DNA from: Escherichia phage JSE
DNA length: 64,000 nt
Sequence record: EU863408
Strand: one strand, 5' to 3'
Made by a program: the position numbers and the translations under genes. The notes beneath the pieces were generated by a model. That model was not told the DNA's origin. It was given only the letters and a program-made list of their open reading frames with translations, and made no database searches. Below, piece after piece: positions 2,995-41,020 of the stretch (its first letter is position 1; each line of letters opens with the position of its first letter).

Positions 2995-3022
2995 ATTATA
3001 GAGAATCTCCCTTGTATGTCAA
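2995..3022 (-). promoter_or_regulatory. sigma70-type early promoter
   Basis: minus strand TTGACA, 16-nt spacer, TATAAT, followed by GGGAGTCTCCC inverted repeat. Confidence 0.55.
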
Positions 3023-3582
3023 CTAAAATTTAAAGATGCAAACTCCCCGTGATGAATTTTTGCATATTCATCATATGCTCTAGCGGCTTCCTCCTGAGTA
3101 GCAAACGATCCTATGTATTTTCTGTATCCGTTTATCCTTATTTGTGCTTGCCACGGTCTTTTGCTCGATCCTTTGCGATGAGTAACACCATTATATATGC
3201 TCGTGCACCCGTCCATTTTCTTTTTATTGTACATGTTTTGTTGTTGTGTTGCCTCCCGTAAATTTGGTGGATTGTTGTTTTCTGGATTCCCGTCTATGTG
3301 GTCTATTACCTTAACCTGTGTTCCATATTCAAGAAACCAGACAATTCTATGTACAAGATATGTAGATGTTCTCTTTTTAACCTTATTGTAAACATCTATT
3401 GCCAAATGACCGTAATTTAACTTTTTTGTTTTTACTTTATCACCGACTTGGTAGAAATATCCCTCTGGTAGACCATTAAAAGACGGACTATTTGTTTTGT
3501 GATATAGAACACCTTCCGTGTGTCCAAATCTTCGTTTTAATTCCTCTTGAATTTCAGTATTCCAAAATTTCGCACTTTTCAT
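3019..3582 (-). CDS. free-standing HNH homing endonuclease with C-terminal AP2-type DNA-binding domain
   Basis: 187 aa; HNH core HIDGNPENNNPPNLREAT; AP2-like tail (YNGVT...WQAQI...GSFATQEEAARAYD); start 1 nt after gene 39 stop; paralog at 56960-57535. Confidence 0.8.
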   Translation of the reverse strand: MKSAKFWNTEIQEELKRRFGHTEGVLYHKTNSPSFNGLPEGYFYQVGDKVKTKKLNYGHLAIDVYNKVKKRTSTYLVHRIVWFLEYGTQVKVIDHIDGNPENNNPPNLREATQQQNMYNKKKMDGCTSIYNGVTHRKGSSKRPWQAQIRINGYRKYIGSFATQEEAARAYDEYAKIHHGEFASLNFS

Positions 3583-9832: not shown

Positions 9833-9880
9833 ATAATAAAACCATTGATTGAGTTTGTCAATCACAAAGTGTATGTGATC

Positions 9881-9888
9881 TATAAATA
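9881..9888 (+). promoter_or_regulatory. candidate T4-type late promoter (TATAAATA)
   Basis: exact TATAAATA about 30 nt before the plus-strand endonuclease ATG; RBS AAAGGAGA. Confidence 0.45.
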
Positions 9889-9917
9889 AGTTTGTTAGAA
9901 CTAAAGGAGATCACAAA

Positions 9918-10838
9918 ATGAACTATAAACGTATTTATGATAACCTGATTGAACGTGCTAAGACTAGAAATATCGACGGATACACAGAAAAGCATCACAT
10001 CATACCACGTTGTATGGATGGAAGCGATGACCCCACCAACCTAGTAAGACTTACACCAGAAGAACATTATATGGCACATCTTTTGTTAGTTAAGATATAT
10101 CCAGATAATAATAAACTGATATATGCCGCTAACATGATGTGCGTTTCTTGTCATGGACAAAGACAAACAAATAAGCGTCACGGATGGTTGCGTAGAAAAA
10201 CGGCGGAAGCGCATAGTAAAAGAATACGCGATAGAATGGAGAACGATCCAGAATATAGATCTAAGGTTTCGGAATGGGCTAGAAAAATGGGTAAAGCCAT
10301 GAAAGGCGTTAAGCGAGGACCGGAATTTAGCAGAAAGTTGGCAGAAAGAAACAGAAATACCGTGATGAGAGAAGAAACTAAACGTAAGATCGGGGAAGCC
10401 AACAAAGGAAAGAAACGTACAGAAGAATATAAAAGAAAACATAGTGAAAGGTATAAAGGTGAAGGTAATCCGATGTATGGTAAACGAGGAAAGGACCATC
10501 CGGCATATGGTACTAAACCGTGGAACAACCAAACATCATTTGTTGAGCAGAAAGCATGGTGGCGGTTCGCTGGCATGTTTTATGACTGGTATCGGAGAGA
10601 TATTGACCGTGGAACACATAAACGCCACGGTCATAAGAGAATGTTGGATGAGTTAGGTTTCGTTGGTTGGCGAGAAAAAGAGCCAGCCGCAGCAAGACGA
10701 TCAATTGAGATGTTCGCTAAAGGCTGGAATCCTTATGAAGACCAAGAATGGTTAGATTATGTTAATACCCGCTTTCCAAACGACGATAGTTTTCCGCGTT
10801 CTTCAACATATACAAGACAAACAGATCCTTCGCAGTAA
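9918..10838 (+). CDS. free-standing HNH homing endonuclease with NUMOD3-type repeats
   Basis: 306 aa; HNH core EKHHIIPRCMDGSDDPTNLVRLTPEEHYMAH; repeated basic ETKRKIGEANKGK-type motifs; the only long plus-strand gene here. Confidence 0.8.
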   Translation: MNYKRIYDNLIERAKTRNIDGYTEKHHIIPRCMDGSDDPTNLVRLTPEEHYMAHLLLVKIYPDNNKLIYAANMMCVSCHGQRQTNKRHGWLRRKTAEAHSKRIRDRMENDPEYRSKVSEWARKMGKAMKGVKRGPEFSRKLAERNRNTVMREETKRKIGEANKGKKRTEEYKRKHSERYKGEGNPMYGKRGKDHPAYGTKPWNNQTSFVEQKAWWRFAGMFYDWYRRDIDRGTHKRHGHKRMLDELGFVGWREKEPAAARRSIEMFAKGWNPYEDQEWLDYVNTRFPNDDSFPRSSTYTRQTDPSQ

Positions 10839-11280
10839 GCCCCAACGCCAAGAATTTACACATAATGAAATGGAGTTGGTCGACGGCTTCTAGGTATGTT
10901 TCCAAACGATCCGCCTCAGATAAATCACTAAAGAGGCGGTTTCGTGCTTCCATATGATTGGCTTTCCAGTGTTTCCACACCGCGCTAGCGTCTTTCCCGT
11001 TAGACATACCACCCAACGCAGTATACAGTTCTCGCGTTTCGTCGTCAAGCGCATTATCATTAGCTCGAATAAAATCTAAAATCTCTCCACATGTTTTCAA
11101 TTCATCAATTTTTGCTACCCACGGACGGTCATTAGATACCTGGTCTTGTAGTGCTTTCTGCATGTCCATCATGTGTTGAAATGGGTTATCACCGTTGGCG
11201 ATAATTTCTTTATATTTTTCTTCTGCAAAATTCAGAGTTTCCGCGTTTACTAAGTGTGCACAAGAATTAAATTCTGACAT
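10762..11280 (-). CDS. 56: dCTP pyrophosphatase (MazG-like)
   Basis: track ORF 10762-11286 (GTG); ATG at 11278-11280 with SD GAGGTG; about 172 aa; immediately downstream of primase as T4 gene 56. Confidence 0.75.
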   Translation of the reverse strand: MSEFNSCAHLVNAETLNFAEEKYKEIIANGDNPFQHMMDMQKALQDQVSNDRPWVAKIDELKTCGEILDFIRANDNALDDETRELYTALGGMSNGKDASAVWKHWKANHMEARNRLFSDLSEADRLETYLEAVDQLHFIMCKFLALGLTAKDLFVLYMLKNAENYRRLESGY

Positions 11281-11294
11281 ATTCACCTCATTAA

Positions 11295-15729: not shown

Positions 15730-16800
15730 TTATGCTAACATATCTTCGATTTCTTTGTCAACTGCTTCGTCGCTGATCACTTGCCCCAGCTTATAATGAT
15801 CGTTGATTGCTTCGTTAAACTTATCGTTTGTCAGAAGTGGTTTCCAGAACTCAATGCTATTGGTTTCTTTAGCACGGAACTTGCGTTCTTCGGTTTCCAT
15901 CTCTCCGGTCTCAGTATTCAGGATTGAACGAGAATACCAGCCGTTTGACGGTTTCACTACCCAGCCTAACTCTACAGCCAACTCCAGCAAACCGGAATAA
16001 GGATCGATACCACCGCTAAATGTTACGCTAATCGGGAACTTAGATTTTTCTTTAACGGTTCGTGATTTTTCCGCATTCAGGATAAAATCATAACCAGTAA
16101 TTTCGGTTCCTTCTTTCTGCTGACGACGACCAATAATGAAAACTTCATTGGCTGAATACATCGCGCCCGTACCGCCGGACATAACGGTCTTACTAAACAT
16201 TTCTTGCGTTTCGTAAGTGTGGTTAATAGCGATGCACGGGATATCATTCATAGTCAGATACGGCGTAACCATACGGAACAAGCCTTTAAGTGCTTTCGCT
16301 CGCGTCATATCCTGTGCGGATTTCTCATTAATCGCGTCTTCAACTTCTTTTTTACTTGCTAAGTTACCGATTGAGTCAATAAAGATGATCACTTTATCTT
16401 CACGGGTAATTTGCTCAAGCTGGTTCATGATTTCAAATTTAAGTTCTTCGATGTTCTTGATTGGAACATGCACCACGCGATCAGGATCTACACCCATAGA
16501 TTCAAGATAAGCGGGTGTAATACCGAACTCAGAATCAAAGAACAAACACGCCGCATCAGGATTCTGTTTCATGTATGCACTAACACAAGTTAATCCCATG
16601 TTTGATTTAAAGTGCTTAGACGGACCAGCAAAGAAAATCAGACCAGATTGAAAGCCTTTTTTAAGATCACCTGAAAACGCAATATTCAGCATCGGGATCT
16701 TAGTGCGAGTATTTGTTTTTTCGTTAAAGAAGCTGGATTTAGACAGTACCGCAGTAGTTTTCAGGGTAGAGTTCTTTTTCAGTTTTTCCAGTACAGACAT
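15730..16800 (-). CDS. uvsX: UvsX recombinase (RecA-like)
   Basis: 356 aa; Walker A GPSKHFKS; RecA-fold motifs. Confidence 0.9.
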   Translation of the reverse strand: MSVLEKLKKNSTLKTTAVLSKSSFFNEKTNTRTKIPMLNIAFSGDLKKGFQSGLIFFAGPSKHFKSNMGLTCVSAYMKQNPDAACLFFDSEFGITPAYLESMGVDPDRVVHVPIKNIEELKFEIMNQLEQITREDKVIIFIDSIGNLASKKEVEDAINEKSAQDMTRAKALKGLFRMVTPYLTMNDIPCIAINHTYETQEMFSKTVMSGGTGAMYSANEVFIIGRRQQKEGTEITGYDFILNAEKSRTVKEKSKFPISVTFSGGIDPYSGLLELAVELGWVVKPSNGWYSRSILNTETGEMETEERKFRAKETNSIEFWKPLLTNDKFNEAINDHYKLGQVISDEAVDKEIEDMLA

Positions 16801-16811
16801 TATTAATACCT

Positions 16812-17039
16812 CTATTCAGTTAATCCGTAATACTTTAATTGCTTCATTGTTATTCGATCTTTGTAGTGCTCTTGAATTAACTTTTTCATCGCATCAACAT
16901 TGATCGTCACAAATACTTCGTTGCTGTGATTTCCGTGAACTTTCTTGAAATGCTCTATGCCTTCCTCACGTTCACGTTTAATCTTTTCAATGTCTCTCAT
17001 AGTATATTTCTCACGTTGGCGGGTATCGTCACCCAACAC
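16812..17039 (-). CDS. hypothetical protein
   Basis: 75-aa ORF; the only ORF between uvsX and gene 43. Confidence 0.35.
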   Translation of the reverse strand: MLGDDTRQREKYTMRDIEKIKREREEGIEHFKKVHGNHSNEVFVTINVDAMKKLIQEHYKDRITMKQLKYYGLTE

Positions 17040-17061
17040 CCGCCATTATACACACTTTATC

Positions 17062-18538
17062 TTAAATGTCAAACAGGTCCGTCAGTGAAGCAACTTTTTC
17101 ATATTGCAGCTTCGCAGCCGTGGTAATGTTCTCCAGTGGTTTGACGAAAGTCTTATTAAACAACAAAGGCCAGTCCAACCACTTCAACACCTCTGATTCA
17201 ATTTCTGGCGGAATACGAGTACCAGACAACCAACCAAAACAGATTTCTCCAAACGGATTTCGGTCTTTAAGCGGTACAATCATAACCTTCTCGCCTTCAC
17301 GAATCGGATCTAGTCCGAATTTTCGAGCATTACGATTATAACACAATACACTCTTAACCGCATACGGACAACCCTTAATCGGATACCCGTTTGAATCGCT
17401 GTATTTCTGTAGGTTGTTTGCAGATGATACCGCAGCAACATCAAGATAGTCAAGTTTTCTAAATTCTTGCTCAAAAATACCGTAGTATTCCTGCAATGAC
17501 TCTTCACCTTCCTGCAACATACGGCGAATACATTCTTTCAGTGATTTCTGGCATGCTTTAGGGGTGGAGCTACGTTGCGTTTCCAAGCCCATGATTTTTA
17601 GCTTAGGTTCAGCAAAGCGCGTTCCTTCCATATCCCAAACATTAAGAGCATAACGCTTTTTACCAGTCCAGAATCCACCGATACCCGCAGATTTCAACGG
17701 AGGACCAGCAATTGCCTCACGGTCCATAAACATCAAGTGCTCATAGTTGTTCATGTACTCGCATAACTCGCGATATCCCTTGTCGATAATAGGTTCCATT
17801 CGATGTTTACCGAAATTATCAAGGAAGTCAACAAGTTTTTCGGTATCGTCGAAACGGTCTTCCCCGCCAACCTTATCAATAACATTGTTAACCAGCACAT
17901 AAACGGAGTCAGTATCACAATAACGAACATATGCAAAATCAGTCGTTCCGCAAAGCTCGTTTAAGTATTCGTTAATCTTACGCTCAATCCACTGAATTGC
18001 AAGCTGACCGAACAGTGTGATCGCACTAGCGTTACGGAGATCATAAAAACGGAATTTAGGATTCCCCAACGCACCATAAAGGGAGTTGATCAAAACTTTA
18101 CGAGAAAGCTGGTTTGTATTGCACAAGATCGACTCGTCTTTACATTCTTCCAGTAATTTCTCTAATGCATCTTTACTCAATTCAGAAAGCATCGATTTAA
18201 ACGCTTCATCGAAGTCGTGACGCACTTCAACGCTATAGCTAATGGTTCCCCCATAAACATGATTTTCATCGTGTAGAATCGCTTTACAGAGTTCAGCATT
18301 GCGGTCACATGCCAACATCATGTTTTTGTACTGCTTACGCTGATCGAATACCTTTTTAATCTCAATCGGTACGATACCGTGAATATCTTTTCTATACATC
18401 CATCCGTTAGGCGAGCAAGAATACTCATCACTCGGACGTGGTGCAGTTTTATTGATATACTCGTGCATCGGTGCAGCATCAAAAGATCCGGCGATTGTTT
18501 CCGGCGAAATATTAACCTGACGGATGATTGATGGATAC
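17062..18538 (-). CDS. 43: DNA polymerase gp43, exon 2 (motifs A-distal, B, C; thumb)
   Basis: track ORF 17062-18468 extended in frame upstream to 18538, adding YPSIIRQVNISPETIAGSFDAAP; contains KVLINSLYGALG and YCDTDS. Confidence 0.85.
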
Positions 18539-19002
18539 CATTATGTTCAGCGTGGTTCGCTACTCCCGCGCCCGTTCTCTTGCGAACTGCTACATGTCAC
18601 CATGTAGATCAGACTATATCACATTCTCATAGAGAATCCTGCCATTTCGAATCGCTTGATTCTACTCTACTCGGTTCGTTACCCTTTCGATAGTCGTTGA
18701 ACAACTGCATCTTTAAGCTCATTTTGATCAAACGGTGTTCTCTTACAGTATCCGCTATAATTCTTCACCCTGATACGGATTAGACACCAGTTTAATGTAG
18801 TCGTTTAATGCTTCCTCGTTATGTATTTCGTACTTTCTTAAAATGTCTTTCATCTCGCGCCTCCAATGTATATCAATATCTATATACATTATAAGACACG
18901 TTAGCTCAAAATGCAACTGCTGCTGATTGTCTCCTTAGAGATTTCCCAGCAATTAAGCAGGTTATTCGATCACTGTCACCAGTGAAAGCCCCATATCAGT
19001 TT
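18539..19002 (-). mobile_element. group I intron in gene 43 (464 nt, no endonuclease ORF)
   Basis: exon 1 ends ...TSL (CCCU|) then in-frame stop; intron AAACUGAUAUGGGG...GAACAUAAUG|; contains UUCAACGACUA and GAUAUAGUCU cores; splicing restores DLTSLYPSII. Confidence 0.8.
18755..18853 (-). CDS. small intron-internal ORF (32 aa)
   Basis: hand-translated MKDILRKYEIHNEEALNDYIKLVSNPYQGEEL; SD GGAGG; no endonuclease motif. Confidence 0.25.
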   Translation of the reverse strand: MKDILRKYEIHNEEALNDYIKLVSNPYQGEEL

Positions 19003-20204
19003 AGGGAAGTAAGGTCAAAGCTCATCATCCAACGGTAAGCATTCGGCACAGGTTCTTTTACGAATGCGCCCGGATAAGTCTGCTTAGGCTGTATCTTGTT
19101 CTCTGGTACTACTTTACCCTCAGCTTTCAGAGATCCGAAGATAATAGCATCCCATACTTTCATCGGGTTATAAACATGGTTAAATTTAATCTTTGCATAG
19201 AAACATAGGCTATACACCAGATCGATAAATCCGCGCTTTTTATCAATCGCCAACACACGGTCAACGTCGCCGATGTTATAATCGATGTAAAGTTGATGGT
19301 TGTCATCACGCAATTTCTTTAACGGACCATCATAATCAACCTTACCGATTCCTGTCTCATATTCAGCAACATAATCTAACGCATATGTTGGTTGAGTCGT
19401 AAAGCTAAATTTCTTGTACAGGTCAATATAATCAAGGCTTTCGATCCCCATGATCGTAAATGCTTCACGCTCGTTGCCAAAATCATCCTGTGAGATTCGG
19501 GATTTAATCTTACCGCACGGGCTTAGACGGTTAGCGGTTCTACTTCCGAACTTATTACTGATACGTTTAATGATATATGGAATATCGAATGTTTCTGTGT
19601 TCCAGCCAGTGAAACCAACGGGTCGGTTTTCCTCAAAGAATCGGATGTATTCTAACAGCAATTCATCTTCTGTGTCATAGACGTTATAAACAACGCGCTC
19701 TACAATATCAGGTCGAAGAATAGACTTGCTAGATTCCCAGATTTCACCGTTTTTTCCTTTCAAATCAAATACAAAGAAACGATCATGTACGGAATCATAA
19801 TGCGTAATTGCATCGATAGGATATTTCGCTTCTTCTGGTTTAGGAAATTCTGGGGCAGTGACCTCGATATCAACCCATGCTACACGGATTTTATTTCGGT
19901 CATATCGAATCTCGCCTTTATACGTATCAGACAGATAGGAGATGATAAAGTCATCCATCCCTAGCGCCTCCTGCCCCATTTCTCCCATCTTTTTACGCCA
20001 TTTGTTGGCCTCGTTCATAGATGGGAATTTTTTAGCAATGCAAGGCTTGCCATAGATATCTTTATAATTCGTAACCATACCAGGCGCGGCATGATGAAAT
20101 AAAGTTGGCGTATATTCAACGTAACGCTCTTGTTCTTGTCCAGCATCATCAATATAACGCTCGTAGATCTTATCACCCACTCGCTCACATGACAGAAAAT
20201 ACAT
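19003..20204 (-). CDS. 43: DNA polymerase gp43, exon 1 (N-terminal and 3'-5' exonuclease domains)
   Basis: track ORF 18996-20234; start at ATG 20202-20204 (SD AAGGAG; MYFLSCERVGDKIYERYID matches T4 gp43 N-terminus); Exo motifs; ends at SFDLTSL. Confidence 0.85.
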
Positions 20205-27082: not shown

Positions 27083-28108
27083 CTAACTTTTTGCGTTATT
27101 TACTTCGGCTAAAAGTTCATCAGAAATACGCTTGACCGCCGCAAGTTCTTCCGGTTCTAGGTTTTGTTCTTCCAGATATTCATAGACCATCTGAATAGTG
27201 CTTTTAACTTCAATAACACCTGTTTCCTGTGATGCGCTACTCTCCAGTTTATGGACCACCTTTAGCTTGTGTACAACGGCCTCTAACGCGCTTTCTAACT
27301 TAGTTAACCCATTATCAGCGACCGTTGCGATAAGACGCACACTAAGCCCTTTAAAGCGTTCTACATCGATTTTATCGTCTGACGGGTAAGTGATACGCAC
27401 ATGATAAGTTTTGTCATTCTGAATAAACTCTTTTTTGTGTGTATCGGTATCGAATACCCAAAAACCACGCGGATCGTTTTCGTCACCCGCCGTTAGTGTG
27501 TATGGTGTACCAATATACGTTACGTTACCGCCATCACTGATAGTATGAAAGTGTCCCGAAAACACTTCACGGTATTTCTTGAGGAAGTCCGCGCTATAAC
27601 CTTCGGATTTTAGCCCTTTATAGAAATAGTAGCCAGACAATTCCCAATGGCCTACACAATATTCGCTGAATGAGTTTTGAATAAACTCTAAAATCTCTGA
27701 TTTATTGTCATCACAAAACCACGGGAACAGGTCAAATGATACACCATCAAAGGTAACTGTTTCCGGTTTATCGATAACCTTAATGCAATCATACTGGCTT
27801 AACACTTCACGCGGTGCGTTAGGCTGGATCTTATGACGTTTGAATAGATCATGGTTCCCTACGGTCACATAACAGGTGATTCCAGATTCTTCCAGTAACG
27901 GGATGACCTTAGTACGGTTAAAACTCATCGTCGCATGAGTAATAGCTTTTCGGCAATCAAACCAATCCCCTGTTTGAATCCATGTCTTAATATTATGCTC
28001 TTTGGAGTATTCAACCGCTTTCTTGATGGTATCAAGAATATACTCATGCACCCACGGATCATCGCCACCGATACCAGTATGCAGATCACCTAAAAGCAAA
28101 ATTTTCAT
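27083..28108 (-). CDS. 47: recombination endonuclease subunit (Mre11/SbcD-like phosphoesterase)
   Basis: 341 aa; calcineurin-like motifs (GDLHTG, GDWFD, GNHD). Confidence 0.85.
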   Translation of the reverse strand: MKILLLGDLHTGIGGDDPWVHEYILDTIKKAVEYSKEHNIKTWIQTGDWFDCRKAITHATMSFNRTKVIPLLEESGITCYVTVGNHDLFKRHKIQPNAPREVLSQYDCIKVIDKPETVTFDGVSFDLFPWFCDDNKSEILEFIQNSFSEYCVGHWELSGYYFYKGLKSEGYSADFLKKYREVFSGHFHTISDGGNVTYIGTPYTLTAGDENDPRGFWVFDTDTHKKEFIQNDKTYHVRITYPSDDKIDVERFKGLSVRLIATVADNGLTKLESALEAVVHKLKVVHKLESSASQETGVIEVKSTIQMVYEYLEEQNLEPEELAAVKRISDELLAEVNNAKS

Positions 28109-28199
28109 AGTCTCTTCCTCTCTTCGTTTTCGATGCTCTCACTATATCACAGAAAAATAAAAAGGGAAACCCCTTTCAGAGTCTCCCTTATAAAAGCCA

Positions 28200-28487
28200 T
28201 TACAGCATACTTAATACCGTTTGCCGTGTACTGACCCACATAGCAGAAAGCAGTTCTGGCGTGTGTGGCTGTTTGTAGATATCACGTAATTTTCCGATAG
28301 CGTAGATATACGCATCACGATTATCATCGATGATAGCTTGTTCAGCCCACCGCTTAAGTCGTGCAATCTCTCGCGAGTTCTTACGCAAGATCTTTTCCGC
28401 TTTCTTAGCGGCTTTAGCCTCTAGTTCTGCTTGTACTTTGTCTACTTCATTCACTGCAATCTTGTCATGCTGTTCATCGTAAGTCAT
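28200..28487 (-). CDS. hypothetical protein
   Basis: 95-aa ORF. Confidence 0.45.
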   Translation of the reverse strand: MTYDEQHDKIAVNEVDKVQAELEAKAAKKAEKILRKNSREIARLKRWAEQAIIDDNRDAYIYAIGKLRDIYKQPHTPELLSAMWVSTRQTVLSML

Positions 28488-28488
28488 G

Positions 28489-28722
28489 TTATTTTACCTC
28501 TGGGATATAATCAATTATTAAAGAAAATTCATCTTCTGATACATTATAGCTATGTGAGATTGTACCCGTCAAGACCTCAAGATCCGGTGATTTGATATTG
28601 CACGGATCGATAATCACCGGAACGCCGCAATCTCTCAAAAATAATTTGGCGAAATACGGCACGAGGTCAGTTTCAAACTCTGCTTCTTCCAGCAAACGGG
28701 AAATGTTAATTTTCAATCTCAT
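28489..28722 (-). CDS. hypothetical protein
   Basis: 77-aa ORF. Confidence 0.4.
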
Positions 28723-29239
28723 AAAATTGGTCCAGGCTAGGCAATTCCTCAGTCAATACATCTTCAACCTTTGGCGCTTTCGGTTTATTGACCGATTCCT
28801 CGTAGTTGTTGATTTTATCGTAAATGTCCTGTATGAATGCCTCATCAGCAATCTGGCACATATCAGCGTCGCGTTCGTCATATACATGATGCACAAAATA
28901 TTTGTATTTTGCGGCTGTCGCTGTTCTCTCTTTTTTAATGCGCTGTACAAAAGCATTAAAGCACGCTTGCGTGATGTAAGCATGAGGATTTTTATACTTT
29001 GTCTCGTCAAAATTAATCAAACCCTTGACCGCCGCTTCGATTCCGTCGTCGATCATTTCTTCGCGCCATGTTTGACTATAACCAGAAAAGTTAAAACGAC
29101 GTGATAGATTTTTAGAGATTTGCATAATTGCTAGGCCGATTTGATCGCTCATTGGAACTTGCCGACCTTCTGCTGCAATTTGTTGTTTCCAACGGCAAAT
29201 TTCTTCGTAAAGCTCTTTATTGTTTACATAATCAGACAC
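28706..29239 (-). CDS. 55: late-transcription sigma factor gp55
   Basis: 177 aa, GTG start; [30 protein letters not shown] and FIQDIYDK identical to recalled T4 gp55. Confidence 0.9.
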
Positions 29240-29279: not shown

Positions 29280-30749
29280 CTATTCCCCATTGCCATTATA
29301 CTTTCTTTGCTTAGTTATCCACACTCTAACCATCTCTACTGATTCACCGTCAGACGGATCAAGAGTTTTTCCTTTTTTCTTCATGCGATACTTAAATCCG
29401 TTAAATCTTGCATTCTCTTGCTCGTTAAAGTCGAACATCTTTTTAAATGATTTTCGCCCTTTACGCTCACCACATTCTAGCGGAATCATTCGGTCTGTTA
29501 TTACATTGGCATTAGGTAGAAACGTTTTTAGATAATCTACCAACGCCCAATCAGGAACATATAGATTAACATTCTCCTTGCTCTCGTTGTCTCTCAGGTT
29601 ACAACGCAAACATAATTGAAATGCTGGTTCCAGATAATCAGACACATGACGCGCTTTCAAAAACTCGTTTGTCGGGAGATCGCAACTATTAGCAAGACCT
29701 TTTAAAATATCAATCTCCCATCGTTGAGGGTTAAAGCTGAACATCACAGCAACATTTTTATGATGAATGTAAGAGTTAAGACCATAAGATCCGTAAGGTA
29801 TCCGCTCACCAATACCATTTGTGCACGCTTCTCGGTCCCGATTCACGGTATAAATGAAGTCATCGCCACATTCATTTTTAACCATATCAACAAGACGTTC
29901 AAAGGTATTGTTTGTTTCTGACTGGTGACGCGACCAGCGTTCGGAGTCAGTCATAAGGATGATGTTAACTCTATCTGTATTTTTATACTCTTTGAAATAT
30001 AGTCTGGATTCTAGCGCACTCGGAACAAAATCGCAATTTGCATAGTATCGTAGATACTTCCCGCTATATGTATCAAAGAGATTTGCACATGCTATCGTAA
30101 CCTTTTTAAAGTCTCCCCACGTACCGTGTTTGTTATCGTTCAAGAAAACAATTTTCGACCCATTCTTCCGGTGTCCTTCGTTATGTTTTACCATAACGTT
30201 GATTTTCTTCTCTAATAACGCCTCATAAAGCCCTCGAAGAGAAGAATCGATCATATCAGTACCATCCTTTGCACTTTCTATCTTTTCTTTGATAGCGGCC
30301 TTCTCAGAGTCTTTTAGAACTAAGTTCTGTAGGCATTCCGATTCGTCGGCGATTGGTTCGCAATGCTTCGTGATAAGTTCAAGATTAGACTTAAACGGAT
30401 ACTCATTAAATTCAACCAGTTGAGGAACTTCATCAATGTAAAGAGCATAATCACCAAACATTTTTGAACGTTCCATATTAGATAACGCTGTATGTGTAAT
30501 GAATATCACATCAGCACCGTCTTTAACTGATTGCATTATCGACGCTTGCACTGTCTTAAGGCTTCTTAGTCTTGTGCTATCGATCAAGACAGCACGACCG
30601 CCCATTCTTTTAAACTTATTGTAAGATTGTTCACTTAAAACACGAGATGGCGAAGCAATAACCGCTTTTTCTTTTGTCTCTAGGACGTGGGAAAGTATAG
30701 CATCAGTTTTCCCCGCCGCTGGCAATGCGATTAATGTTTCAATCTTCAT
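29280..30749 (-). CDS. P-loop NTPase of unknown function (helicase-like Walker A/B)
   Basis: 489 aa; Walker A LPAAGKT near N-terminus; Walker B-like LYIDEVPQ; no match to a T4 core gene that I recognise. Confidence 0.55.
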   Translation of the reverse strand: MKIETLIALPAAGKTDAILSHVLETKEKAVIASPSRVLSEQSYNKFKRMGGRAVLIDSTRLRSLKTVQASIMQSVKDGADVIFITHTALSNMERSKMFGDYALYIDEVPQLVEFNEYPFKSNLELITKHCEPIADESECLQNLVLKDSEKAAIKEKIESAKDGTDMIDSSLRGLYEALLEKKINVMVKHNEGHRKNGSKIVFLNDNKHGTWGDFKKVTIACANLFDTYSGKYLRYYANCDFVPSALESRLYFKEYKNTDRVNIILMTDSERWSRHQSETNNTFERLVDMVKNECGDDFIYTVNRDREACTNGIGERIPYGSYGLNSYIHHKNVAVMFSFNPQRWEIDILKGLANSCDLPTNEFLKARHVSDYLEPAFQLCLRCNLRDNESKENVNLYVPDWALVDYLKTFLPNANVITDRMIPLECGERKGRKSFKKMFDFNEQENARFNGFKYRMKKKGKTLDPSDGESVEMVRVWITKQRKYNGNGE

Positions 30750-31216: not shown

Positions 31217-31475
31217 AAATCTCCCTAAGTTCTTTATAGCCTCCAATGTGCTCGTTGTCAATGAATATCTGGGGGTATACAAATCGGAGGCTCTTTGAGT
31301 TCAGCCTCCCCGCCAGTTCTTCAATCATATCACGGTCGGGAATAATGTCAACCCCAACCTGCTTGAATACTGGTTTAAGTGTATACGGAATACCCAGATC
31401 ATCCAGTAGCTTCATTGCACTAATACAACCATAACAATGATAAGCCTCTTTCGGTATGCCGTATATCTCGATCAT
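31206..31475 (-). CDS. nrdH: glutaredoxin-like protein NrdH
   Basis: 89 aa; CYGC active site; YPQIFIDNEHIGGY. Confidence 0.8.
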   Translation of the reverse strand: MIEIYGIPKEAYHCYGCISAMKLLDDLGIPYTLKPVFKQVGVDIIPDRDMIEELAGRLNSKSLRFVYPQIFIDNEHIGGYKELREIYDY

Positions 31476-31948
31476 TTCTCAGCCTTTAATCGTTCTAGTT
31501 CTTCTTCCAGTTCCTTGATCCGTTGGTCACGTTCAAAGTCACGCTGCAACTTAGTGGCGAATACTCGTTTAAACTGATTGTAATCATCGATTTTAAACAC
31601 TTCTTCTTCGCCATAGCGACGTACAGAAACTTCGTAGTTATTGAAGAATTGTTGCATCATTGCTTCGGATGATAGTTCTGCCGATACTACTTTAAAATAT
31701 TGATCTTCTGTAGGCGAAAACCAATTGCAAGCATAAAGATAAACCTTTTCATTGTCTGGACACTGGTAAGCCTTACCATCGATTTCAATCACAGAAACAT
31801 ATTCAGGTATAGTAGATGAATCAATAGCTAAGACTTTAAACGAACGGTCCCCGATAAACTCGGAGATCACACGATTCGCATCACTGGTTGCAAATGCTTT
31901 ACGCGCTTGTTCGTTTTTCCACTGATAGGTCATACCAACAACAAACAT
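31472..31948 (-). CDS. paralog-family protein (WEVGKTY-type repeat, family A)
   Basis: track ORF 31472-31972; start at ATG 31946-31948; shares N-terminal and beta-rich core with next three ORFs. Confidence 0.5.
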   Translation of the reverse strand: MFVVGMTYQWKNEQARKAFATSDANRVISEFIGDRSFKVLAIDSSTIPEYVSVIEIDGKAYQCPDNEKVYLYACNWFSPTEDQYFKVVSAELSSEAMMQQFFNNYEVSVRRYGEEEVFKIDDYNQFKRVFATKLQRDFERDQRIKELEEELERLKAEK

Positions 31949-31949
31949 A

Positions 31950-32774
31950 TTACCAACCTCGCTCTTTACCAATCAAAAATTCAACTTCACGACGTTTAAT
32001 GTCTTCTTGAAGGTCTTTAATCTTCTGGCGATCTTGCATTATTTCGTCCATCTTGTCAAGTGCTGCGATGAAATCATCGAAACGTTCAAAGGTTTTACCT
32101 TCATTTGCTTCGCCAAATTTAACCATTGTCAGGCCGTAACGACTACTAAACAGACGTTTCAACTGTCCAACGATTTTAGAATCAGTGGTTATAACTTCCA
32201 ATTCTTCTACTTCACGAAAGAATTTTCTATCAGAATCAATAAACCAGCTAGTTCCCTTATGGTCGCTATCTTCTGTTGCGCTCATTAGAGTATGGTCTTT
32301 ACCATCAATTTCAATTACATCAATTTGCCCACATGGACTAACATTTTTAACAGTAAAAGGTCTATAATTTATTGCTCGTGCAATAACATAATTAAGGTTA
32401 GATACGTTTTCAGCATAATGGCAGAAGTCTGTCATAGCATTCGCATCTTTCCAAGTATAAGTTTTACCAACTTCCCATTTCTGGGGAACTTCTTCAACTT
32501 CACGAAAGAATTTTCTATCAAATGGACTAAAGAAATATGTTGCAGTCCAAATGTCTTTTCCTGTAGCAGTTTTCGCCGTATGATAAACACCGTCTAGCTC
32601 TATTGCATCAATCCAACCGTTACCCTCGATCTCGATGATGGTAAATGGCTTGTCACCAATAGCTGCACTAATATCGCTGTTAAGTGGAGAAAGAACACCT
32701 TCTCCGTTAGTAATAAACTCAGTTTTAGCGTTTTCGTCTTTCCAGGTGTAAGTTTTACCAATTTCCCATTTCAT
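31950..32774 (-). CDS. paralog-family protein with two tandem repeat modules (family A)
   Basis: 274 aa; MKWEIGKTYTWKDENAKTEF and QKWEVGKTYTWKDANAMTDF each followed by ...IDVIEIDGK... Confidence 0.55.
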   Translation of the reverse strand: MKWEIGKTYTWKDENAKTEFITNGEGVLSPLNSDISAAIGDKPFTIIEIEGNGWIDAIELDGVYHTAKTATGKDIWTATYFFSPFDRKFFREVEEVPQKWEVGKTYTWKDANAMTDFCHYAENVSNLNYVIARAINYRPFTVKNVSPCGQIDVIEIDGKDHTLMSATEDSDHKGTSWFIDSDRKFFREVEELEVITTDSKIVGQLKRLFSSRYGLTMVKFGEANEGKTFERFDDFIAALDKMDEIMQDRQKIKDLQEDIKRREVEFLIGKERGW

Positions 32775-32786
32775 AATATATTCCCC

Positions 32787-33251
32787 TTAACCGATTTTAT
32801 CAAGTTCGTTTAATGCTTTCTCTGCTTCCTGTATAGCTTGCACCCTTTCCGGCATTTTGTCAAGAAAATCTTTCAACTCTTCAAAACTGGAGATATGACG
32901 CAAGGCGTTAGCACCGATAGCCGCATGTGATTTGCATTCAAAGCGGATTTTATAATTATCCATCGCCAATTTGAGAAGATCAATTAATTTAGATTCTTCT
33001 GGAATAATAATTTCTTCAAATCTGCTACGGTCATGATCCAGAAACCAACAAGATAGACCTACATCGGTTGAACTCATATAAGTTCCATCATGAAGATAAA
33101 CAGACCGCACGTATCCTTTTTTCGCATCAACCGACGCAACTTTAAACGGTAATCTCAGATATTTCAAATAATCAACATCATACCATTTAAAAAATTGGTT
33201 TGCATCTTTTACATCTTTCCACGCATAGGTCTTACCAACTTCCCATTTCAT
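32787..33251 (-). CDS. paralog-family protein (family A)
   Basis: track ORF 32787-33266; start MKWEVGKTYAWKD at 33249-33251. Confidence 0.55.
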   Translation of the reverse strand: MKWEVGKTYAWKDVKDANQFFKWYDVDYLKYLRLPFKVASVDAKKGYVRSVYLHDGTYMSSTDVGLSCWFLDHDRSRFEEIIIPEESKLIDLLKLAMDNYKIRFECKSHAAIGANALRHISSFEELKDFLDKMPERVQAIQEAEKALNELDKIG

Positions 33252-33255
33252 AATA

Positions 33256-33783
33256 TCATCTCTCATTTTTGATACGTGATTCTAATTGGATCATACGGTC
33301 GCGCGTTTGCTTGTATTCGCGGATAGCACCGATCCGGCTAGGCATACCATCAAGCACGCTCTTAATACCTTCTAGGGTAGTAATTTTGGCAATGCTATTA
33401 TGTAACCCCATCTTATCGATCAACTGAATGTCGTAGGCTTCCATAAGCAGACCCAGGCGTTCTAAAGTTAGGTCTTCTTCTTTTTCTTCCGATTCTGGAA
33501 TCTTAGGTTCAATAGTAACTTCGGTAAAGAAACGACGCTCACCCGACCAAAACCACACACCGGAACAGCCAATAGGGGATTCTTTTAACGTCATAGAGTC
33601 GAAATTACTACCAATAATAGTAATTTCTCTAACATCACCATCATCGTCAAGGTCTTCTACCCTAAACGGGCGACCAGCCAACAAGTCCACAATACATCTG
33701 TTAATAGACGACGAAAATTTAGTCAGTTCGGCTTTCGACGCTTCGCATTCAATCTTGTAAGTTTTACCAACTTCCCATTCCAT
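33256..33783 (-). CDS. paralog-family protein (family A)
   Basis: track ORF 33256-33792; start MEWEVGKTYKIE at 33781-33783 with SD GAGGTG. Confidence 0.55.
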   Translation of the reverse strand: MEWEVGKTYKIECEASKAELTKFSSSINRCIVDLLAGRPFRVEDLDDDGDVREITIIGSNFDSMTLKESPIGCSGVWFWSGERRFFTEVTIEPKIPESEEKEEDLTLERLGLLMEAYDIQLIDKMGLHNSIAKITTLEGIKSVLDGMPSRIGAIREYKQTRDRMIQLESRIKNER

Positions 33784-33793
33784 AATAATCACC

Positions 33794-35714: not shown

Positions 35715-36707
35715 TTACATGTGCTTAACGCGGTTTACCATCTCGGAGTGTTTCCCGTGGTTAAATGGACGCAGATCAACAGATCCAAGATATCCACTAA
35801 CGCGACGGATAACATTCATCTTTTCCAGATTGTCATTTCCGCAATCAGGGCAAACAAAACCAGACTCGGTCGCTCTCATTTCCTTATTAGATCCGCATAC
35901 ATGACATACATCAGAAGGAGTATTAACACCGAAGTAGTGCAATTTATCCATTGCATAGTCTACTACAGTTTCAAGACCTTTCAGGTTGTTTTTCATGTCT
36001 GGGAACTCAACATAAGAGATCATGCCACCGGACGCCAGCCAGTGATAATCTTTCTCAAAGTCGATTTTCTCAAATGGTGTGACTTTCCGGTCTACGTCAA
36101 GGTGGAATGAGTTGGTGTACCAGTCTTTATCGGTAGCACCCTTAACAATACCAAATTGCTCTCTGTCCAGTCGATTAAATCGATAGCAAAGGCTCTCGGC
36201 TGGCGTACCGTAAAGACTAAACCCAAGTCCGGTTTCGTCCTTCCATTTTTCAGTATAATGACGCAAGATCTTAAGAATATGTTTACCGTATCGCTGCGCA
36301 TCTTCCGAATCAAACGGATGAACACCAAACAGGACGCTCAATACCTCATGTAAACCAATATATCCAAGAGAGATACTAGCGCGACCATCTTTCAGCACTT
36401 CCAAAATTTCATCGTTTTGATGAATACGGAAAAATGCACCTTCTGTATACAGTACAGGAGCAACATTGGCTTTAGCCCCTTTTAAAGCGTCTACGCGACT
36501 CATAAGCGCATCAAAGCAAATAGGCATACGATTAGCTAGCTCTTGTTCGAATAGCTCAATTCTGCGCATTACAGACGCTTTACCAGCACGACGCGCGGCA
36601 ATAAGAGCAATACGCGGAAGATTCAGAGTCACAACACCCAAGTTATTACGTCCGTCTAATACTTCCTCGCCTTTCTCGTTATGCCACACACCCAGGAAAC
36701 TTCTACA
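35715..36707 (-). CDS. nrdD: anaerobic ribonucleotide reductase NrdD, exon 2
   Basis: 330 aa starting CRSFLGVW; glycyl-radical motif RVSGYLG; C-terminal CxxC...CxxC. Confidence 0.85.
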   Translation of the reverse strand, partial: CRSFLGVWHNEKGEEVLDGRNNLGVVTLNLPRIALIAARRAGKASVMRRIELFEQELANRMPICFDALMSRVDALKGAKANVAPVLYTEGAFFRIHQNDEILEVLKDGRASISLGYIGLHEVLSVLFGVHPFDSEDAQRYGKHILKILRHYTEKWKDETGLGFSLYGTPAESLCYRFNRLDREQFGIVKGATDKDWYTNSFHLDVDRKVTPFEKIDFEKDYHWLASGGMISYVEFPDMKNNLKGLETVVDYAMDKLHYFGVNTPSDVCHVCGSNKEMRATESGFVCPDCGNDNLEKMNVIRRVSGYLGSVDLRPFNHGKHSEMVNRVKHM

Positions 36708-37467
36708 CATTATTTGTTCAGGGTAGGTCGCTAATCTACCCCCGCCTTTCGGCTGCTACATGTCGCCATGCAGATCAGACTATATCTTCTATCTTTCGAT
36801 AGTCTACCATTTCGGATCGCTTGATCCTACGCCGCTACATTCATCACGGCTAGTCGTTAGGCATTTCATAGCGGAACTCATATTCATAAGTATTGGTTTT
36901 TCTACCATCAAGAATTGCAGATACATTTTTACGATGCAAGCCCAATGTTTCAGAAAGACTTCTCACGCTTTTAAATGTCTGCTCTTGTCCGGTTTCTTTA
37001 TGGATCGCAGTAACCTTATATGAACGACGTTTGAACTTATAGCACCCGTTTTCGTAACCTTCTTTCGTGTTTTCGCTGTTAGTCCCCCACTCAAGGTTAG
37101 ATGCATCGTTTATAGTTTTATCGTCGTTTTTATGTTTCACATATCGATAGCCGTTAGGATTCGGAATCCAACATTCAGCCACAATAACATGAACACGCAA
37201 ACATAAAGGTTTCTTGTCTCTCCTTACCCTTACTAATGTATATCCGGTATTGTTTTCTATCCAGGTACTCAACTGTTTACCTTTAGGAGAAAACACCCGT
37301 CCATCTTTCGATACCATATATTCGGTATCACGAATTTTTCTAAGTTCCATAATATATCCTCTTATACACATTGGCGTAAAGAGAATATGACCGCTATGTT
37401 TAGCACGGGATTGTCTTCTAGAGAGTTCCCCCGTTTAGGCAGATTTTAGATGAGCTGTTTAAAGTTT
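36708..37467 (-). mobile_element. group I intron in nrdD carrying an HNH homing endonuclease gene
   Basis: exon 1 ends ...SPMG (GGGU|); intron AAACUUUAAAC...GGGGGAACUCUCUAGAAGACAAUCCCGUGCUAAA...CUGAACAAAUAAUG|; cores CCUAACGACUAG and GAUAUAGUCUGAUCUGCAUGG shared with the gene 43 intron. Confidence 0.8.
36850..37350 (-). CDS. intron-encoded HNH homing endonuclease (NUMOD4/HNH_3 with IENR1-like tail)
   Basis: track ORF 36850-37371; start MELRK at 37348-37350 with SD AAGAGGA; HVIVAECWIPNPNGYRYVKHKNDDKTINDASNLEWGT; stop overlaps intron core. Confidence 0.8.
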   Translation of the reverse strand: MELRKIRDTEYMVSKDGRVFSPKGKQLSTWIENNTGYTLVRVRRDKKPLCLRVHVIVAECWIPNPNGYRYVKHKNDDKTINDASNLEWGTNSENTKEGYENGCYKFKRRSYKVTAIHKETGQEQTFKSVRSLSETLGLHRKNVSAILDGRKTNTYEYEFRYEMPND

Positions 37468-38337
37468 ACCCATCGGGCTAACCGGAACACTAGATCCAGT
37501 GATGCTACGGTTATTCTTCGCAGAGATATAATCAGGGTAAAGACGCTTACTAGAACATTCCAATGCAAGTTGCTTAATGTCGTAGTTCGGATCTTCCGGT
37601 TTAAGGTTTAATCCTTCTTCTAAGAACATCACCAGCTTAGGAAACACCGGAGTTATACCGTCTTTACCTAAACCTTTAGTTCGAACTTTCAGGATCGCTT
37701 TCTGAATCAGTTTTTCTTCCCAGCTAGTACCCATACCAAAGGTTAAAGTCACAAAAGGTGTTTGACCGTTGGTAGAGAACAAAGTGTTGATCTCATATTC
37801 CAACGCCTGATATCCGTCTAACGTTTCTTTTTCTGTTTTCTCTTGTGCATAGAGAGTATCAGCTTTGATTCCGTAGGTTTCGGCATCAGCAAGGTGTTTA
37901 TGATATGTTTTCTTAACATACGGCGCTAACACCTGGTCGATGTTTGCAATTGTGGTCCCGCCATATTGATGACTTGCCACCTGTGCGATAATTTGAGCGG
38001 TTACAGCACATGCAACACCGATCGATTTAGGACTTTCGATTTGTGCGCTACCCAATTTAAAACCATTCTCTAACATGTCTTTGAGATTAACAAGACAGCA
38101 GTTAGTAAACGGCATAGCTGGTGCATAATCCATATCATGATAATGAATATCACCGTCTACATGCGCTTTATAGATGTGCTCAGGTAACACGGTTTTAGCA
38201 ATATGTTTAGACACAGCGCCAGCAATCAGATCTCGACGTGTCGGGAATGTTCGCGCGTCTTTGTTCGCGTTCTCTTTGCTTACTTCGTTTTCTTTACCCG
38301 TTGCGATCTCTGTAATGTCTTTGATTAGTTTTTCCAT
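37468..38337 (-). CDS. nrdD: anaerobic ribonucleotide reductase NrdD, exon 1
   Basis: 290 codons ending ...SSVPVSPMG; in-frame stop 2 codons into the intron; joins to CRSFL of exon 2. Confidence 0.85.
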
Positions 38338-38906: not shown

Positions 38907-38934
38907 ATTATAGCATACTCCCTTCGCATGTCAA
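38907..38934 (-). promoter_or_regulatory. sigma70-type early promoter (PeSL-like)
   Basis: minus strand TTGACA, 16-nt spacer, TATAAT inside GGGAGUAU/AUACUCCC inverted repeat. Confidence 0.55.
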
Positions 38935-40733: not shown

Positions 40734-40747
40734 AATATAATCCTCTA

Positions 40748-41020
40748 TCATTTCACTAATTGAACAGCACGAAACAGAATGCGGTCACACGGAAGAAGCA
40801 TAAATTCCCAACGCGGATCAAAGTCTTTAGCGGTATATGTTTTCCCATCAACCGAGATTTCACTTACATAACCAATAGGTGACACTTTAAGAACAGTAAA
40901 CCCATTCTTGATGACTTCGTAGGTATCTTTCAATCCTTCGTAGTCATCCTCTAGGAAGTCTTTACGTGCTTGCTCAGATTTAAAAACATAGGCCACACCG
41001 GATTTAAACATCTTACGCAT
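40748..41020 (-). CDS. paralog-family protein (family B, single module)
   Basis: track ORF 40748-41080 (TTG inside promoter); start MRKMFKSG at 41018-41020 with SD GAAGGAG. Confidence 0.5.
   Translation of the reverse strand: MRKMFKSGVAYVFKSEQARKDFLEDDYEGLKDTYEVIKNGFTVLKVSPIGYVSEISVDGKTYTAKDFDPRWEFMLLPCDRILFRAVQLVK

Follow-up and report, generated by a model that had tools for sequence, protein, structure and literature searches.

The genome of Escherichia phage JSE (record EU863408) carries only one small gene between uvsX and the DNA polymerase gene 43, an interval that in T4 holds segA, b-gt, 42, imm and imm.1. This raises the question of whether the genes for hydroxymethylcytosine (hmC) and its glucosylation lie elsewhere in the genome, whether the phage modifies its DNA by a different scheme, or whether its cytosine is not modified at all. 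We analyzed a stretch of 64,000 nucleotides (the window), which represents the rIIA-proximal 64 kb of the genome, the remaining part being about 100 kb. By nucleotide identity and gene order the window is that of an RB49-type "pseudo-T-even" coliphage of the genus Krischvirus, a relative of T4 whose named members include RB49, phi1, JSE, ECD7, GEC-3S and others. Queries of 25 kb from the window showed 97-98% nucleotide identity with many Krischvirus records, gene for gene the window is collinear with the complete RB49 genome, and the proteins common to both mostly show 96-100% identity. The A+T content of the genome is 60%.

The interval between uvsX and gene 43

The ORF map and tblastn searches confirmed that no dCMP hydroxymethylase or glucosyltransferase gene is located between uvsX and gene 43, as had been proposed from the sequence. 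The original prediction had also given the T4 contents of this interval rightly as beta-gt, 42, imm and imm.1, leaving out only the segA gene of the T4 layout. The single ORF that it described here does stand alone, but its length of 75 aa, corresponding to a GTG start (16812..17039), is probably too long. The ATG at 17000, yielding 62 aa, is the more likely start because the 62 positions of phrog_12120 cover residues 14-75 of the longer reading, the RB49 homologue RB49p025 is annotated as 189 nt, and the GTG sits within a stem-loop directly 3' of a promoter. This early promoter shows the sigma-70 consensus, with TTGACA (17072..17067) and TATAAT (17050..17045) separated by a 16-nt spacer. Its -35 box is placed within the final codons of gene 43, shortly before the TAA stop codon (17064..17062), and the stem-loop GGCGGGT...ACCCGCC (17044..17018) follows the promoter directly. 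An early promoter is annotated at the same place in RB49, and the configuration resembles the PeSL motif class described in PMC2839356. A PeSL-type early promoter plus stem-loop would drive a 62-aa, lineage-specific ORFan.

About 57 Krischvirus records contain the ORFan with 97-100% identity, and weak matches (43-48% identity) came from phages of Klebsiella, Salmonella and E. coli of roughly 45-50 kb. Among 5.8 billion proteins it formed only 4 clusters, all near-identical, and it had no match in Pfam; as these clusters differ so little, AlphaFold was given the single sequence, and its model was a helical hairpin of low confidence (pLDDT 63). The neighboring UvsX is 99.7% identical to that of RB49. 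The same arrangement of uvsX, ORFan and gene 43 occurs in RB49 and ECD7, and it is uninterrupted in all close relatives including SAP. The window thus has the Krischvirus-type interval, with only the RB49p025-type ORFan behind an early promoter. This short interval would be the normal form of the lineage, and T-even phages would have segA, beta-gt, 42, imm and imm.1 inserted in it.

Gene 43 itself is not one ORF but is interrupted by a group I intron (Table 1). The joined exons encode 892 aa, of which 890 agree with RB49 gp43, and removal of the intron restores the polymerase motif A, SFDLTSLYPSIIRQ. The match to RF00028 covers the full model (1-253) with 42.9 bits, which is below the gathering score of 50, and was obtained in a targeted E-value search; Rfam at gathering thresholds gave no matches in the whole window. 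In ECD7 the intron version is 1114 nt long and has a 274-aa HNH ORF. A gene 43 intron with a truncated endonuclease gene has been described for JSE (PMC2993671), and the window matches that description.

Table 1. Coordinates of the features discussed, with the evidence for each
Feature	Position	Strand	Evidence
uvsX, RecA-like recombinase, 356 aa	15730..16800	-	63.7% identity to T4 UvsX over 350 aa, E = 6e-152
Small early ORFan, 62 aa (more likely start), RB49p025 homologue	16812..17000	-	phrog_12120 (unknown function), E = 2.4e-41
PeSL-like cassette (predicted early promoter and stem-loop)	17018..17072	-	promoter matches 12/12
Gene 43 exon 2	17062..18538	-	collinear with RB49 gene 43
Group I intron in gene 43, 464 nt	18539..19002	-	Rfam RF00028, E = 1.9e-9
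HNH homing endonuclease remnant in the intron, 53 aa	18916..18755	-	phrog_12434 positions 2-36
Gene 43 exon 1	19003..20204	-	comparison with RB49 gene 43
Gene 56, dCTPase/dUTPase family NTP pyrophosphohydrolase	10762..11286	-	42% identity to T4 gp56, E = 3e-44
Locus syntenic with T4 alpha-gt: 47, a-gt.4 and a-gt.5 homologues, 55	27083..29239	-	ORF map, RB49 correspondence
dam, N6-adenine DNA methyltransferase	41872..42684	-	46% identity to T4 Dam over 266 aa, E = 4e-64

Search for the hmC and glucosylation genes

Using tblastn with the T4 proteins gp42, beta-gt, alpha-gt, imm and imm.1, nothing better than E = 0.78 was found in the window: this value belonged to beta-gt, at a place inside gene 55, and the best E-values for gp42 and alpha-gt were 3.9 and 9.9. 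When alc, denB, arn and ndd were included, no homologue of any of these nine T4 proteins was identified in either the window or the complete genome of RB49, except for a weak match of gp42 to its paralogue td in RB49 (E = 0.008). The T4 map positions of alc, denB and arn are outside the region of the window, and their absence from this phage, like that of the hmC genes beyond the window, is taken from relatives at 97-98% identity. The other modification locus of T4, with alpha-gt between genes 47 and 55, is also covered by the window. There, 91 nt separate gene 47 (27083..28108) from the homologues of a-gt.4 and a-gt.5, which are followed by gene 55; a glucosyltransferase gene is missing. Both the uvsX-43 and the 47-55 intervals are thus inside the window, and neither contains a glucosyltransferase-sized gene.

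hmC is made at the nucleotide level by an enzyme of the thymidylate synthase family. The only protein of this family in RB49, which also has cd, denA, frd and gene 1, is Td (Pfam Thymidylat_synt, E = 1e-84). We considered the RB49 td product (410 aa) as a disguised dCMP hydroxymethylase and rejected it, as it has Asn, in LGLPFN, at the position of Asp179 of gp42 and its best matches are the T4 td exons. No glycosyltransferase, thymidylate synthase (PF00303) or other base-modifying Pfam family was detected in the 30 window ORFs screened. Some dozen ORFs of 130-210 aa in the window could be assigned to no family, and the only large protein of this kind, with 489 aa, is encoded downstream of gene 55. 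The possibility that it is a GT-B glycosyltransferase in disguise was rejected: the Walker A (PAAGKT) and Walker B (IDEV) sequences that it carries make it a P-loop NTPase, and it matches the DEAD family. PDB sequence searches with this protein and with gp56 returned nothing meaningful.

Published surveys agree with these results. RB49 is described as lacking the hydroxymethylase and beta-gt (PMC4041780), and RB49-type phages as lacking gene 42, alc and denB (Table 4 of PMC2993671); DenA and dCTPase-dUTPase homologues are the only ones kept in the RB49 group (PMC8056088), and homologues of the 5hmdCMP synthase and of the DNA glucosyltransferases are missing from Krischvirus genomes (PMC13390438). 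The absence of hmC genes is stated for the whole genus both in reviews and in a chemical study of 2026 (PMC2993671, PMC8056088, PMC13390438).

The original prediction had offered as one possibility that the hmC genes are located outside the window; this would be the other, roughly 100-kb part of the genome. The window covers only 64 kb, the genomes of T4-like phages are mosaics with many homing endonucleases, and the window itself contains five endonuclease genes and one relic that RB49 does not have at those sites. Nevertheless, both T4 syntenic loci are in the window and are empty, and the complete, collinear RB49 genome lacks gp42, alpha-gt, beta-gt, alc, denB and arn, in agreement with the condition of the whole genus (PMC2993671, PMC13390438). 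Moreover, hypermodified DNA would not maintain the strong avoidance of restriction sites described below, which T4 does not show. We regard a location of these genes outside the window as extremely improbable.

The presence of gene 56 and dam, which the original prediction had noticed, was substantiated (Table 1), but to read gene 56 as a hint of hmC was unwarranted. Apart from the giant phages of Aeromonas and Vibrio, every sequenced T4 relative has gene 56, with or without gene 42 (Table 4 of PMC2993671), and because it is so nearly universal it is no indicator of hmC; for annotation, "dCTPase gene 56 present" should not be taken as a marker of hmC DNA. The gene is a divergent allele, with 57% identity to RB49 gp56 at the protein level while the neighboring genes show 97-100%, and its product is 98% identical only to that of phage G37-3. 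The motifs common to all three gp56 sequences compared are intact, and the protein matches phrog_173 (E = 4e-33). The adjoining endonuclease is an HNH/NUMOD3 (Mob-like) enzyme; SegF, which adjoins gene 56 in T4, was considered as a relative of it and is unrelated (E = 0.5). We suggest that gp56 would act as a dUTPase and as a partial drain from dCTP to dCMP, and that together with dCMP deaminase and thymidylate synthase it may shift the nucleotide pool to dTTP for a genome of 60% A+T, its role not being the exclusion of cytosine from DNA. Against this explanation counts the argument that an efficient dCTPase is counterproductive in a phage with dC (PMC8056088).

Restriction-site avoidance and the state of the cytosines

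We compared observed and expected counts of six-base palindromes, taking those with an expected count of at least 5. In the window 15 of 53 were absent, as were 19 of 60 in RB49 and 0 of 52 in T4; the absent ones include TCCGGA (0 observed versus 25 expected), GAATTC (0 versus 14), GGATCC and AAGCTT (0 versus 13 each). Only 8 of 3672 non-palindromic hexamers were missing from the window, known type IIS sites such as CTGAAG being among them. The mean log2 ratio of observed to expected palindromes was -1.65 in the window, -2.0 in RB49 and -0.29 in T4, and palindromes containing C/G (-1.84) were far more depleted than those of A/T only (-0.32). Other recognition sites were also scarce in the window: CCWGG (31 versus 65 expected), EcoKI (0 versus 5.9) and EcoBI (3 versus 10.6). 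This depletion fits the mark of DNA long exposed to restriction enzymes. Protection from host restriction would then come from the purging of type II, IIS and I recognition sites from the sequence, and adenine methylation by the dam product would be its second source. The Dam protein (PF02086, MethyltransfD12, E = 4e-30) is 97% identical to RB49 Dam and, from its homology to T4 Dam, is presumably GATC-specific.

HpaII and NheI are blocked by cytosine methylation. RB49 DNA was cut by both enzymes in a digestion of 2014 (PMC4041780), and Krischvirus TB34 showed canonical dC by HPLC-MS (PMC13390438). Because of these two results and the strong site avoidance in the window, we consider that there is very probably no cytosine modification at all; the original suggestion of a different modification scheme was right only in taking this phage not to use hmC. 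Judged from sequence and from its relatives, the window very probably represents an RB49-type phage devoid of the T-even hmC module, with ordinary deoxycytidine in its DNA, a short uvsX-43 interval as its normal state, and protection by site purge and Dam.

Could protection depend mainly on methylation, by Dam m6A and phage cytosine methyltransferases, rather than on site avoidance? The dam gene is present and GATC, unlike most palindromes, is not depleted in the window (365 observed versus 351 expected). RB49p143 and RB49p189, two more annotated methyltransferases of RB49, correspond to positions outside the window, and a DNA-cytosine methyltransferase homologue has been mentioned for the RB49 group (PMC8056088). 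But the cutting of RB49 DNA by HpaII and NheI (PMC4041780) and the lack of any modified nucleoside in TB34 (PMC13390438) argue against this reading, and a few methylated motifs cannot explain dozens of depleted sites. As the main mechanism methylation is very unlikely; as a minor component it is compatible with the explanation by site purge.

The other alternative, reported for the Krischvirus SAP, is that cytosine is modified by a route independent of gp42 and of the known glucosyltransferases. SAP is 99.96% identical to the unmodified TB34, yet about one third 5-hmdC and two thirds alpha-gentiobiosyl-hmdC were reported in its DNA, along with restriction by the type IV enzyme BrxU; there were no candidate genes, the pathway was not identified, and the published comparison of SNPs between SAP and TB34 gave no leads (PMC13390438). 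The many window ORFs without known function would leave room for such enzymes. However, the SAP profile does not differ from that of seven Tequatrovirus phages handled in this study, and this likeness together with the unmodified twin TB34 leads us to infer a mixed or swapped stock as the simpler reading. Besides, there is no thymidylate-synthase-family enzyme apart from the dUMP-specific Td, RB49 is cut by HpaII and NheI, and the lineage-wide purge of C/G sites argues for cytosines that were exposed and unprotected over evolutionary time. We thus give this route very little credence, and no more is due to the broader proposal that Krischvirus, possibly including the phage of the window, can put (glycosylated) 5-hmC in place of C without a gp42-type synthase or a known glucosyltransferase. 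If it were true, some of the lineage's ORFans would have to encode the enzymes, and the pathway would genuinely involve gene 56; the SAP report of 2026, if real, would point to a new cytosine-modification pathway.

Under the preferred reading, ordinary cytosine in a site-purged genome, the missing hmC genes are ordinary for the RB49-type lineage and already known. The absence of gene 42 and glucosyltransferases and the restrictable cytosine DNA were stated in a review of 2010 (PMC2993671), and confirmation followed from restriction digestion in 2014 and HPLC-MS in 2026. Site avoidance plus Dam as the anti-restriction strategy would account for the sensitivity of such phages to sequence-specific defences and for their capability for generalised transduction.

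Comparison with known modification systems

The glucosyl-hmC system of T4 comprises gp56, gp42, gp1, alpha-gt, beta-gt, alc, denB and arn, whereas the window has homologues of gp56 and Dam. What the window shares with T4 is the conserved replication backbone (41, 40, uvsX, 43, regA, 62, 44, 45, 46, 47 and 55). GATC is depleted in T4 and spared in the window. With RB69 and the other Mosigvirus phages, which carry arabinosyl-5-hydroxycytosine, it has only the general T4-like backbone in common. The Mosigvirus modification depends on arabinosyltransferases, one of which is encoded in the rIIA-gene 39 interval, and on a 5-hodCMP synthase homologous to gp42, whose gene occupies the place of gene 42 (PMC13390438). 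The window has no gene at that place, no glycosyltransferase family was detected in the ORFs screened, and between rIIA and gene 39 there are just three small ORFs and the gene of an HNH-AP2-like endonuclease. The coliphage group of RB43 (Pseudotevenvirus), a different genus, is likewise without gene 42. It has no genes for non-canonical bases and keeps DenA and dCTPase-dUTPase homologues (PMC8056088, PMC12115623), and its gp56 is about 54-56% identical to the allele in the window.

The closest system is RB49 itself, together with the genus Krischvirus. Features of the window that set it apart from RB49 are the intron in gene 43, an insertion in nrdD that carries an HNH ORF, the replaced allele of gene 56 and the HNH endonuclease adjoining it, and three more free-standing endonuclease genes; the HNH-AP2 gene found beside gene 47 in RB49 is missing from the window. 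Both genomes are alike in gene order, in the interval formed by uvsX, the 62-aa ORF and gene 43 with the same early promoter, in the presence of gene 56, dam and the a-gt.4/a-gt.5 homologues where 42, alpha-gt and beta-gt are absent, and in their avoidance of palindromes.

The interval between uvsX and gene 43

The original prediction stated that beta-gt, 42, imm and imm.1 are missing between uvsX and gene 43, and this was confirmed. At the same map position the T4 RefSeq record shows segA, beta-gt, 42, imm and imm.1, and the window a single tiny early gene. The genes of this region all run on the minus strand. The presence of one ORF in the interval had been predicted correctly, though its length is probably not 75 aa. 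It is better read as a putative gene of 62 aa starting at the ATG at 17000, because the phrog_12120 profile (62 positions) matches residues 14-75 (E = 2.4e-41), the RB49 homologue, RB49p025, is annotated as 189 nt and the GTG lies within the stem-loop that follows the promoter. This promoter-then-stem-loop layout, or "PeSL", has been described for RB49 and phi1 (PMC2839356).

At high identity (97-100%) the small ORF was found only in Krischvirus, the genus of RB49-like T4 relatives (about 57 genomes). Weak relatives occur in enterobacterial phages of roughly 45-50 kb, and a collection of 5.8 billion proteins contained only four near-identical clusters. No Pfam family was found for it, and its predicted structure is a helical hairpin of low confidence. 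It is an early ORFan without any link to DNA modification. Megablast of the window retrieved dozens of Krischvirus records at 97-98% identity, none of them identical. The window begins at rIIA and is collinear gene by gene with RB49, most shared proteins being 96-100% identical. The order uvsX, small ORF, gene 43 is annotated in RB49 and ECD7 exactly as in the window, and megablast showed this stretch unbroken in all close relatives, phages SAP and TB34 included.

Features of the JSE window, in window coordinates
Feature	Position	Strand	Remarks
uvsX	15730..16800	-	356 aa; 63.7% identity to T4 UvsX, E = 6e-152 (tblastn)
Small ORF	16812..17039	-	75 aa if read from GTG; 11 bases beyond uvsX
Stem-loop GGCGGGT...ACCCGCC	17044..17018	-	GTG of small ORF inside
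Sigma-70 promoter TTGACA-16 nt-TATAAT	17072..17045	-	perfect (12/12 matches); stem-loop directly after
Gene 43	17062..20204	-	intron inside polymerase motif A
Gene 43 stop codon TAA	17064..17062	-	from sequence reading
Group I intron of gene 43	19002..18539	-	464 nt
HNH homing endonuclease remnant	18916..18755	-	53 aa; within gene 43 intron
Replaced cassette	9862..11257		relative to RB49
HNH/NUMOD3 homing endonuclease gene	9918..10838	+	306 aa; overlaps gene 56 3' end
nrdD	35715..38337	-	contains insertion
nrdD insertion	36708..37467	-	760 bp relative to RB49
HNH endonuclease ORF	36850..37371	-	173 aa; in nrdD insertion
Free-standing homing endonuclease gene	3019..3582	-	
Free-standing homing endonuclease gene	55282..55812	-	
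Free-standing homing endonuclease gene	56960..57535	-	
Large protein	29280..30749		489 aa; Walker A and B motifs, DEAD-family match
phrog_5347 member	31472..31972	-	PHROGs
phrog_5347 member	31950..32774	-	PHROGs
phrog_5347 member	32787..33266	-	PHROGs
phrog_5347 member	33256..33792	-	PHROGs
phrog_5347 member	38931..40109	-	PHROGs
phrog_5347 member	40173..40751	-	PHROGs

Search for hydroxymethyl-cytosine and glucosylation genes

Based on tblastn searches of the window and the whole RB49 genome with T4 proteins (from the RefSeq record), the window has strong homologues of gp56, Dam and UvsX, which bears out the predicted presence of gene 56 and dam, and RB49 has strong homologues of Cd, DenA and Frd. 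For beta-gt, alpha-gt, imm, imm.1, alc, denB, arn and ndd there was nothing below E = 0.04 in the window or in complete RB49, and the dCMP hydroxymethylase gp42 gave one weak paralogous match in them, RB49 td (E = 0.008). This gene was ruled out as a gp42 counterpart: its product matches Pfam Thymidylat_synt at 1e-84, the T4 td exons are its best match and its LGLPFN motif has Asn at the position of gp42 Asp179, which sets the specificity for dCMP. On this evidence RB49 Td is a true thymidylate synthase. The td gene lies outside the window (RB49 locus L005, 36870..38102, in its own coordinates) and encodes 410 aa, its Thymidylat_synt domain being divided in two by an insert of some 135 aa (approximately residues 118-253).

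The T4 alpha-gt locus (genes 47-55) falls inside the window, where no alpha-gt was found and only a-gt.4 and a-gt.5 homologues are left. A Pfam scan of 30 window ORFs, including every unannotated one of at least 130 aa, yielded no glycosyltransferase, thymidylate-synthase relative or other base-modifying family, and the PHROGs matches were all of "unknown function" or goF-like. The sole large unknown protein, of 489 aa, is a predicted P-loop NTPase on account of its Walker motifs and DEAD-family match. The paralogous family phrog_5347 ('goF / frd.2-like') has six members, flanking the nrdH-nrdG and nrdD regions.

Hydroxymethyl-cytosine (hmC) genes located outside the window had been offered as one explanation of their absence. 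This is not the best reading, since none occurs in the complete genome of the collinear RB49. Indeed, the missing hmC genes are already known biology for the RB49 lineage, as several reports attest. According to Petrov et al. 2010 (PMC2993671, Table 4), carriers of gene 42, alc and denB are confined to the T-even, JS98, RB69, CC31, Acinetobacter and 44RR types, with RB49, phi1 and JSE not among them, and of the phages tabulated only the giant ones of Aeromonas and Vibrio lack gene 56. RB49 has neither hydroxymethylase nor beta-glucosyltransferase, and HpaII and NheI digest its DNA but not that of T4 (Yaung et al. 2014, PMC4041780). In the RB49 group the only homologues kept are those of DenA and dCTPase-dUTPase (Nikulin and Zimin 2021, PMC8056088; PMC12115623). 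Krischvirus genomes lack 5hmdCMP/5hodCMP synthases and DNA glucosyltransferases, and Krischvirus TB34 (OX001802.1) has canonical cytosine by HPLC-MS (2026 Durham Collection paper, PMC13390438).

Gene 56, introns and homing endonucleases

The window gp56 is probably active, as it keeps the motifs common to the T4 and RB49 proteins (DDE.REL, ASAVWK.WK and E..D..HF). In a phage with unmodified dC its conserved role would most plausibly be that of a dUTPase. It could also turn some of the dCTP and dCDP into dCMP, which the Cd, Td and Frd enzymes (RB49 has all three) would use to enrich dTTP for a genome of 60% A+T. The window gp56 shares only 57% identity with that of RB49, the flanking genes being 97-100% identical; its closest match is in phage G37-3 (98%), and anything else reaches at most 57%. 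The cassette replaced relative to RB49, gene 56 allele plus HNH/NUMOD3 gene, was found in one of 56 Krischvirus records, G37-3 (93.6% nucleotide identity). The divergent allele adjoining this endonuclease gene, the region's only long plus-strand gene, suggests delivery by a homing event. The endonuclease was rejected as a T4 SegF relative, the two being unrelated on comparison.

Gene 43 is interrupted by an intron rather than split; the intron scores under the Rfam gathering threshold (E = 1.9e-9) yet covers the full-length model. Splicing would restore the motif SFDLTSLYPS and a gp43 of 892 aa, with 890 residues the same as in RB49 gp43 (99.8%). ECD7-type introns have an intact HNH gene, whereas here only the stump is left; this truncation has already been described for JSE (Petrov et al. 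2010, PMC2993671). GenBank relatives have gene 43 annotated as two separate 'DNA polymerase' CDSs. The nrdD insertion, with a weak group I signal (RF00028, E = 1e-4, 27 bits), is probably a second endonuclease-bearing intron. Two of the three free-standing endonucleases are paralogues (42-46% identity) of RB49p040, an HNH endonuclease annotated with an AP2 DNA-binding domain, and the other is an HNH_3/NUMOD4 ORF without RB49 counterpart. RB49 has its own HNH gene beside gene 47, which is absent from the window.

Restriction-site avoidance and the state of cytosine

Word counts were compared with those expected under a maximal-order Markov model. Fifteen of the 53 six-base palindromes with an expected count of 5 or more are absent from the window (19 of 60 in RB49), and the mean log2 observed/expected over all 64 is -1.65 (-2.0 in RB49). 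TCCGGA, GAATTC and GGATCC, expected 25, 14 and 13 times, do not occur; AGCGCT, ACCGGT, AAGCTT, CAGCTG, CCATGG, CCGCGG and GGTACC are also missing. Among 3672 non-palindromic hexamers just 8 do not occur, including CTGAAG, ACTGGG, GAGGAG and ACCGGC. We take these to be largely type IIS or degenerate sites, CTGAAG being Eco57I and ACCGGC falling within RCCGGY. Palindromes containing C/G are depleted (mean log2 -1.84) and those of A/T only are not (-0.32). EcoKI sites number 0 versus 5.9 ± 2.6 expected, and EcoBI sites are reduced (3 versus 10.6 ± 3.3). We found no description of such extreme avoidance by RB49-type phages in the literature searched.

If cytosine were hypermodified, type II enzymes would put no selection on the sequence. 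The depletion is what one classically sees in DNA exposed without protection to restriction enzymes. From the window sequence alone, this speaks in favour of canonical cytosine, and of an anti-restriction strategy that combines site avoidance with Dam methylation. A discordant report concerns Krischvirus SAP (OZ034687.1), whose DNA contained 5-hmdC and alpha-gentiobiosyl-hmdC and which was sensitive to BrxU, in spite of 99.96% identity to unmodified TB34; all known pathway genes were missing and no genetic explanation was found (PMC13390438). That SAP and its lineage modify cytosine by a new pathway seems to us extremely improbable, because SAP has the same profile as seven Tequatrovirus phages of the same collection (PMC13390438), the lineage has no thymidylate-synthase-type enzyme other than Td and site avoidance runs deep in it. 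On the same three grounds a mixed or mixed-up stock is plausible, and in our view likelier than a new pathway. The earlier interpretation is supported in part: JSE probably does not use hmC, and the best reading is that its cytosine carries no modification, in preference to relocated genes or the different modification scheme also put forward.

T4 lacks this pattern. With 52 six-base palindromes at an expected count of 5 or more, it is missing none (86 kb; mean log2 -0.29 over all 64), and CCWGG is not depleted (75 observed versus 72 expected), compared with 31 versus 65 in the window and 69 versus 180 in RB49. GATC, presumably the site that the phage's Dam methylates, is not depleted in the window (365 versus 351); T4 shows none of the window's site avoidance, yet its GATC is depleted (91 versus 283).
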